A DNA stretch of 64,000 bases from the NCBI GenBank assembly GCA_963716985.1, contig OY970323.1:576001-640000 (forward strand), written 5' to 3'. Source of the DNA: an uncultured bacterium. Lineage in GTDB: Bacteria; Chlamydiota; Chlamydiia; Chlamydiales; SM23-39. Position numbers and translations under genes: made by a program. The number at the start of each line of letters is the position of its first letter. Position 1 is the stretch's first letter. A model generated the notes under the pieces. The model searched no databases, was not told the DNA's origin, and saw nothing but the letters and a program-made list of their open reading frames with translations. Shown one piece after another: positions 27,340 through 27,500 of this stretch.

Positions 27340-27500
27340 ACAGGAACACCGAAGAAGTGGGCAAATACGTTGCAAAGTTGGCACATAGATGCCGTTCTCG
27401 ACATTGTATTGTCCATTTCATTCGGATTTCATGGTGGGGCGAGGAGAGAAAATGTACTCCTCAAAAAAAGACCCCGGAGAGAACGGTGGATTCTTCCTGT
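27340..27500 (+). ncRNA. Putative bridge/seek RNA of the IS110 element (boundaries approximate)
   Basis: Internal-loop hairpin with ttgcaaagt (27370-27378) and ttctcgac (27395-27402) matching the target; second loop with atttcatg (27426-27433) and agagaac (27478-27484) matching the donor junction. Confidence 0.75.

Follow-up and report, generated by a model that had tools for sequence, protein, structure and literature searches.

A probable RNA-guided insertion sequence of the IS1111 group within an IS701-family element of a chlamydia-like bacterium

Two nested insertion sequences

The window (the whole 64,000-nt stretch of DNA that was analyzed) belongs to a genome of 2.07 Mb that consists of a single contig. 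Two insertion sequences are nested at the locus described here, one of IS110/IS1111 type lying within one of the IS701 family (Table 1). The outer element carries a transposase gene (27845-29197) with a PF13546 domain, which scored 297 bits against NF049999 ("IS701 family transposase"), and its tips, CTCGAC...GTCGAG, are bracketed by a TTTAT duplication (26110-14 and 29434-38). Elsewhere in the genome, 15 other left ends of this element were found, reading CTCGAC/TTTGTAC or a near variant and all uninterrupted, as well as 14 other right ends, each reading TTGCAAAGTCGAG; the right terminal inverted repeat of the present copy, ttgcaaagtcgag, lies at 29421-33, as an earlier reading made from the sequence alone had claimed. 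The inner element is an insert of 1602 bp that splits CTCGAC from TTTGTAC, 6 bp inside the left end, and the dinucleotide AC is found at both junctions, once as the last two bases of the severed CTCGAC (26119-20) and once as the last two bases of the right end of the insert, AGAGAAC (27721-22). Comparison with the 15 empty sites revealed duplication of this dinucleotide and no ordinary target duplication, which is a characteristic of the IS1111 group. With 15 empty left ends, the element between both halves and AC on each side, the insertion site reconstructed in the sequence-only reading was thus correct.

Table 1. Features of the nested elements (positions within the window).
Feature	Position	Strand	Evidence
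Left-hand TTTAT of the target duplication (5 bp) around the IS701-like element	26110..26114	+	Direct reading; right copy at 29434-29438
CTCGAC, the 6 bp at the tip of the IS701-like left end, severed from the rest	26115..26120	+	15 uninterrupted copies
IS1111-type (IS110 family) insertion sequence, 1602 bp with one copy of the AC core	26121..27722	+	
Left end ATGAGAT, then left subterminal inverted repeat AATTGCGCGCAA (26128-39)	26121..26139	+	Same layout in relatives
Recombinase gene, 345 aa, DEDD nuclease domain and C-terminal Ser domain	26225..27262	+	PF01548, PF02371
Predicted bridge/seek RNA unit, 161 nt: outer stem, target-binding hairpin, donor-binding hairpin	27340..27500	+	Fold, covariation, covariance model
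Target loop, 5′ strand: TTGCAAA and core GT	27370..27378	+	Complementary to top strand of right flank
Target loop, 3′ strand: TTCTCG and core AC	27395..27402	+	Identical to top strand of left flank
Donor segment ATTTCAT	27426..27432	+	Reverse complement of left end ATGAGAT, 6/7
Donor segment AGAGAAC	27478..27484	+	Identical to right end plus core, 7/7
Right subterminal inverted repeat TTGCGCGCAATT (27704-15), then right end AGAGAAC (27716-22)	27704..27722	+	
Rest of the IS701-family element	27723..29433	+	PF13546; NF049999
IS701-like right end TTGCAAAGTCGAG (ttgcaaagtcgag)	29421..29433	+	14 other right ends in the genome

Further variants or fragments of the IS701-like family are present in the genome, since the 10-mer CTCGACTTTG occurs 44 times genome-wide, 30 of these occurrences continuing as one or the other of the two end types. 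To the right of the IS701-like element (29640-30100), a long run of short repeats rich in GCA, GGA and GTA was observed inside a 323-aa frame (29537-30508), the first two thirds of which (residues ∼44-225) are mostly Ala, Gly and Val.

The inner element has the layout of the IS1111 group: its subterminal inverted repeats are 12 bp long (7-17 bp being the range for the group) and are each set back 7 bases from the end of the element, and its non-coding DNA is distributed unevenly, with 104 nt upstream of the recombinase gene (26121-26224) versus 460 nt downstream (27263-27722). The recombinase scored 252 bits against NF033542 ("IS110 family RNA-guided transposase"; cut-off 140). When 14 uninterrupted homologues were aligned, D8, E55, D94, D97 and S259-G260 were invariant, corresponding to the DEDD and Ser-Gly residues expected, with S259-G260 forming part of the motif G251-x2-P254-x4-SG. 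The recombinase had earlier been called intact, which holds at the level of the sequence (open frame and invariant D8, E55, D94, D97 and S259-G260), and only there. It is distantly related to the bridge recombinases of solved structure, ISCro4 (9t56) and IS621 (8wt6), with E values of ∼4-6e-7; the similarity, at E ∼1e-7, covers the C-terminal domain only. In a circle of the joined ends (27704-27722 plus 26121-26132), TTGCGC can be seen by eye 17 nt upstream of GATAAT, which might constitute a junction promoter for the recombinase gene; of the 14 left ends that were located, 13 retain TAAT at positions 7-10 (L028 has TAGT).

A conserved RNA structure downstream of the recombinase gene

The sequence-only reading had placed a bridge/seek RNA in the non-coding region 3′ of the recombinase gene. 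The fold of 27340-27500 has a free energy of -54.3 kcal/mol (z = -3.76), and none of 200 shuffled sequences was equally stable. An outer stem (27340-46 / 27494-500) closes two hairpins into a unit of 161 nt, and both hairpins are retained when the entire 3′ non-coding region is folded. The first consists of a basal stem (27349-69 / 27405-25), longer than previously described, beneath an internal loop, and of an apical stem (27379-83 / 27390-94), and the second of two stems (27436-40 / 27470-75 and 27441-46 / 27457-62). The strings from which the structure had originally been read are all in place: aatacg/tgtatt (27364-69/27405-10) and tggca/tgccg (the apical stem) as paired strands, ttgcaaagt (27370-78) and ttctcgac (27395-402) as loop strands, and atttcatg (27426-33) and agagaac (27478-84 and again at 27716-22) as donor strings. 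That reading had also pointed to a competing pairing, of the 3′ loop strand with GTCGAGA (27306-12). When the entire region was folded, the hairpin prevailed over this pairing, which, moreover, is not a feature of the family. Considered as a conserved "anti-guide", GTCGAGA was rejected, the best match in an element to its own guide averaging 5.35 versus 5.47 for the guides of other elements.

When 400 genomes of the phylum were searched at the protein level, homologues of the recombinase were found in 40 (the genome analyzed here included). Of the related loci, 28 extend at least 100 nt past the 3′ end of the gene, and 22 of these contained a segment homologous to 27340-27500 (blastn, 61-81% identity). 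The covariance model proposed at the outset was built from an alignment of 23 sequences; it added three loci to the 22 and, furthermore, returned one truncated match and one weak match in an alphaproteobacterial record. Thus, at least 25 related elements of the same phylum keep the RNA on the downstream side of their recombinase gene, and the unit at 27340-27500 has the highest score of all with this model (R1; 151.9 bits). With a structure of 43 pairs, 81.4% of the alignment cells were paired versus 34-52% when the 3′ partners were slid by 1-3 columns, a comparison that somewhat favors the unslid version, the structure having been derived from the fold of this very element. Compensatory changes were found in 32 of the 43 pairs, none of 500 shuffles reached the observed values, and RNAalifold recovered the main stems independently. 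The relatives are not independent of one another (L032 and L036, for instance, have a guide in common). A scan of 25600-29600 against Rfam at E values up to 10 returned four matches at chance level and no bridge-RNA family, and a promoter scan of the + strand yielded no convincing candidate for the RNA.

The RNA unit is separated from the right subterminal repeat by ∼200 nt (27501-27703), compared with ∼40 nt in the nearest relative, L023. The fold of the whole non-coding region contains a strong hairpin there (∼27540-27600), and a 405-bp fragment of the element found elsewhere in the genome stops inside it, at 27591.

Guide strands, donor segments and the occupied site

The two strands of the internal loop of the first hairpin match both flanks of a target. 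The 5′ strand, UUGCAAAGU, is complementary to ACTTTGCAA, and the 3′ strand, UUCUCGAC, equals TTCTCGAC; jointly they specify (T)TCTCG-AC-TTTGCAA. Reverse-complemented, this string gives the IS701-like right end and one base of its flank, and the match to this right end is perfect over 13 nt. Taken individually, such matches are weak evidence: after shuffling of the non-coding region, a 9-mer with at most two mismatches was present in 11,968 of 20,000 cases, an 8-mer with at most one mismatch in 2,462 of 20,000, and both of them, in the right order and 10-40 nt apart, in 166 of 20,000. The comparison of guides with flanks across the relatives is decisive. Among 23 sequences, the guide blocks are the least conserved blocks of the RNA (mean pairwise column identity of 0.28 for the 5′ and 0.37 for the 3′ strand, versus 0.6-0.8 for the scaffold), and each of them ends in a nearly invariant dinucleotide (GT, 0.84; AC, 1.0). 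The core of IS621 is CT. The seven variable bases of the 5′ strand matched the right flank of their own element at 5.15 of 7 positions on average, versus 1.87 for the flanks of other elements (n = 20), and the six variable bases of the 3′ strand matched their own left flank at 5.15 of 6 versus 2.05 (n = 13); for both strands, none of 20,000 permutations reached the observed sum. For this comparison, the ends of the relatives were located independently, via the subterminal repeat and the AGAGAAC and ATR... termini, loci with no detectable end being left out; before the permutations, the guides of L048, L049 and L033 were re-registered by hand and those of L051 and L042 were trimmed to 9 nt. Some relatives have three to five mismatches between guide and right flank, the poorest being L037 (5/9) and L042 (4/10). 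The assignment of the loop strands as guides, originally made from this locus, is borne out by these hypervariable blocks, which stand between near-invariant cores and match the flanks of their own elements across the relatives.

The segments next to the second hairpin behave in the same manner with respect to the ends of the element. The segment at 27426-32 matches the left end of its own element at 5.79 of 7 positions versus 4.54 for those of others (n = 14; 0 of 20,000 permutations). AGAGAAC in the RNA has a column identity of 0.98, and the right end is AGAGAAC in all 20 elements with a located end (AAAGAAC in one of them). The donor segments had been proposed to read the circle junction, with which it agrees that they follow each element's own ends across the relatives.

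That the matches arose by chance, the hairpins being merely a 3′ untranslated structure or terminator of the recombinase transcript, would be in keeping with the lack of significance of the single matches at this locus. However, the same two blocks covary with the flanks family-wide, the donor segments covary with the ends, and a terminator scan found no terminator-like site on the + strand, so that this explanation is extremely improbable. The stretch 26121-27722 is very probably an RNA-guided insertion sequence of the IS1111 group, equipped with a 161-nt 3′ RNA whose guides name the terminus of a co-resident IS701-family element. The bridge/seek RNA that the sequence-only reading had placed 3′ of the recombinase is supported by covarying structure, hypervariable guides, covariation with flanks and ends, and the published order of segments in IS1111 RNAs.

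If so, the internal loop of the first hairpin would present the two guide strands, of which UUGCAAAGU would pair with the top strand of the target, right of the crossover, and UUCUCGAC with the bottom strand, left of it, the two overlapping in the core dinucleotide, which reads AC in the top strand and GU in the RNA. AUUUCAU and AGAGAAC around the second hairpin would pair with the ends of the element as joined in the excised circle. If it acts like those of IS621 and ISEc11, the RNA-bound DEDD/Ser recombinase would then bring the circle junction up to the target and exchange strands at the core. With a terminus of an IS701-family element as the target, 6 bp from the tip, insertion would split the terminal repeat of that copy. 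We infer that the RNA is made, that it is bound by the recombinase and directed the insertion observed here, and that the element is still mobile. The diversity of natural guides suggests, in addition, that the recombinase may be reprogrammable.

The site that is actually occupied, ATCTCG-AC-TTTGTAC, belongs to the left end and differs from the guide at two of nine positions. The internal difference places a guide G opposite T, a wobble by inspection, and the second difference is at the position farthest from the core, where the sole mismatch is also located in 7 of the 20 relatives with a located right end (L029, L030, L031, L032, L036, L039 and L040). Because the differences amount to a G·T wobble and a distal mismatch, a single guide plausibly addresses both IS701-like ends. 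A guide tuned instead to the right end, TTGCAAAGTCGAG, with the copy at the left end resulting from an off-target event or from homologous recombination between IS701-like copies, would account for the perfect match to the former versus the two differences at the latter, and the genome contains many IS701-like copies able to recombine. Nevertheless, such an origin is improbable given the kind and position of the two differences; moreover, this IS701-like copy still has its undamaged TTTAT duplication on either side, which is evidence against a rearrangement here.

Copies of the element, known systems and targets of relatives

The genome contains one full copy of the IS1111-type element. The remaining copies are decayed fragments of 95-98% identity, including an 894-bp gene fragment (95% identity) with a stop codon and the 405-bp fragment, which contains the RNA with identical guides (146.7 bits), its single stem change keeping a G·U pair. 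A 68-bp left-end remnant elsewhere in the genome has the same TCTCGAC/ATGAGAT junction. A split right-end remnant of a related element (G000:C1:1296224-1296482), into which ∼200 bp of other sequence are inserted, ends ...GATTAGAGAAC beside AAGGTC, which is not IS701-like. Thus, the expectation that all genomic copies would sit in ctcg-AC-tttg was confirmed for the full copy and for the left junction of the 68-bp remnant, but not for the right-end remnant, which has an unrelated flank. Two degenerate remnants of the RNA scaffold (G000:C1:374288-374340 and 673745-673877, both on the minus strand), the former with another sequence in the 3′ loop strand, TGTTAGAC, suggest that this genome once harbored older elements whose guides were different.

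Potential targets are plentiful: the genome contains 15 exact CTCGACTTTGTAC and 15 exact CTCGACTTTGCAA sites, all uninterrupted, and the right-end type that matches the guide perfectly is occupied nowhere. One full copy next to ∼30 uninterrupted matching sites gives no sign of recent spread. Hence, a true IS1111-type element might have been inserted here once or a few times long ago and have become an immobile relic, the identity of the RNA being undisputed in this case. The fragmentary state of all other copies, one with a stop codon, and the ∼200 extra nucleotides between RNA and right end, compared with the nearest relative, are in line with immobility, whereas the open frame, the invariant catalytic residues, both ends and both subterminal repeats, all intact, and an RNA with the highest score under the family model speak against it; altogether, we regard a relic as a serious possibility, somewhat short of an even chance. 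The element looks intact, and its present-day activity is unproven.

Insertion of one mobile element into the end of another has a precedent in IS4321/IS5075, members of the IS1111 family for which Partridge and Hall (2003, J Bacteriol 185:6371) reportedly found insertion at a single position within another transposon's terminal inverted repeats. The targets of these elements are the 38-bp repeats of Tn21-family transposons in proteobacteria. The element described here has in common with them the subterminal repeats and the insertion inside the terminal repeat of another transposon, but its site comprises 13-15 nt at the tip of an IS701-family element rather than a Tn21-family repeat. The bridge RNA mechanism as such was published in 2024 (PMC11208160, PMC11187229). 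According to the main accounts of these systems, the IS1111 elements ISEc11, ISKpn4, ISPst6 and ISPa11 carry seekRNAs (Siddiquee et al. 2024, PMC11187229), the group is recognized by its subterminal inverted repeats and by the non-coding region that follows the gene (PMC11187229; PMC11208160), and an RNA is predicted in the right end of 93% of IS1111 elements (PMC11208160). As these four elements are described there (PMC11187229), they share with the present one a DEDD recombinase of 330-350 aa with a G--P----SG motif, the subterminal inverted repeats and the long downstream non-coding region. The seekRNAs portrayed in the same source (PMC11187229) likewise have a ∼80-nt hairpin that contains both target segments (27349-27425 here, 77 nt), and there, too, the segment that matches the top strand lies on the 5′ side of the one that matches the bottom strand. 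Relative to that description, the present element differs in that its donor segments are located in a three-way junction closed by an outer stem, in its chlamydia-like host and in having an IS701-family end as its target.

As in IS621 and ISCro4, going by the published descriptions (Durrant et al. 2024, PMC11208160; Hiraizumi et al. 2024, PMC11208158), one RNA has separate target- and donor-binding parts, each of which reads both strands around a 2-nt core (PMC11208160), and the recombinases are homologous, though protein similarity is low. According to the same description, the RNA of IS621 lies in the left end, upstream of the gene (PMC11208160); here, it lies in the right end and the core is AC/GT. 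Thus, published work already covers how such elements act, that their RNA lies 3′ of the gene and that transposon ends can be targeted, and the locus is a new example rather than a new mechanism, a verdict supported by the fact that the NCBI model NF033542 already labels the protein an RNA-guided transposase. A literature search found no paper linking the IS110/IS1111 family or its bridge RNA to chlamydiae, and the text-readable supplements of PMC11208160 and PMC11187229 (one picture-only PDF each aside) contain no chlamydial genus names. The elements are, in effect, a newly delineated chlamydial clade of known RNA-guided elements of IS1111 type. What they offer is a cleanly readable natural bridge/seek RNA of this type, together with at least 25 related RNAs in chlamydia-like bacteria that combine varying guides with a fixed scaffold, and hence a data set on guide length, wobble tolerance and choice of core in the less-studied IS1111 branch, as well as an instance in which, within a small intracellular genome, the ends of one mobile element are the target of a second.

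A further, rather speculative reading, which we consider unlikely, sees the chlamydial IS1111 lineage as a parasite or policeman of other mobile DNA, with a guide that has settled on a sequence common to both of the non-identical IS701-family ends. In that case, the guide G would pair with C in one IS701-like end and wobble with T in the other, and insertion 6 bp into the terminal repeat would disable the IS701-like copy concerned. Were the element still active, it would, in addition, be a programmable recombinase native to a group of obligate intracellular bacteria in which genetic manipulation is difficult. That the whole lineage is aimed at the ends of other insertion sequences was rejected: among the 18 right flanks scanned, a transposase domain adjoins only that of L034, the flank of L038 has DUF6444 only, and the remaining ones adjoin ordinary or unassigned genes.

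Two relatives are present in many copies. In G233, the left flank matching the guide, ATATAC, was found in 10 of 10 full copies, and the matching right flank, TCGTTCC or TCGTTTC, in 9, the tenth having no match. The target in G233 looks like a short palindromic, REP-like repeat and not like the end of an insertion sequence; the ten copies of this 1.43-kb relative (L052-L061) are situated in a short repeat, GGAACGAG-TATATA-CTCGTTCC...AGTTGAAAG. In G057, 13 of 22 distinct right junctions are within two mismatches of the flank predicted by the guide and 9 are not; rearrangement is likely to account for the latter, given the ∼40 copies and fragments of the element there. One G057 locus, L025, contains a gene-bearing insert (2545-3700) between the recombinase gene and the RNA, which are thereby ∼1.2 kb apart, and its translation resembles, by eye, an IS30-type transposase.
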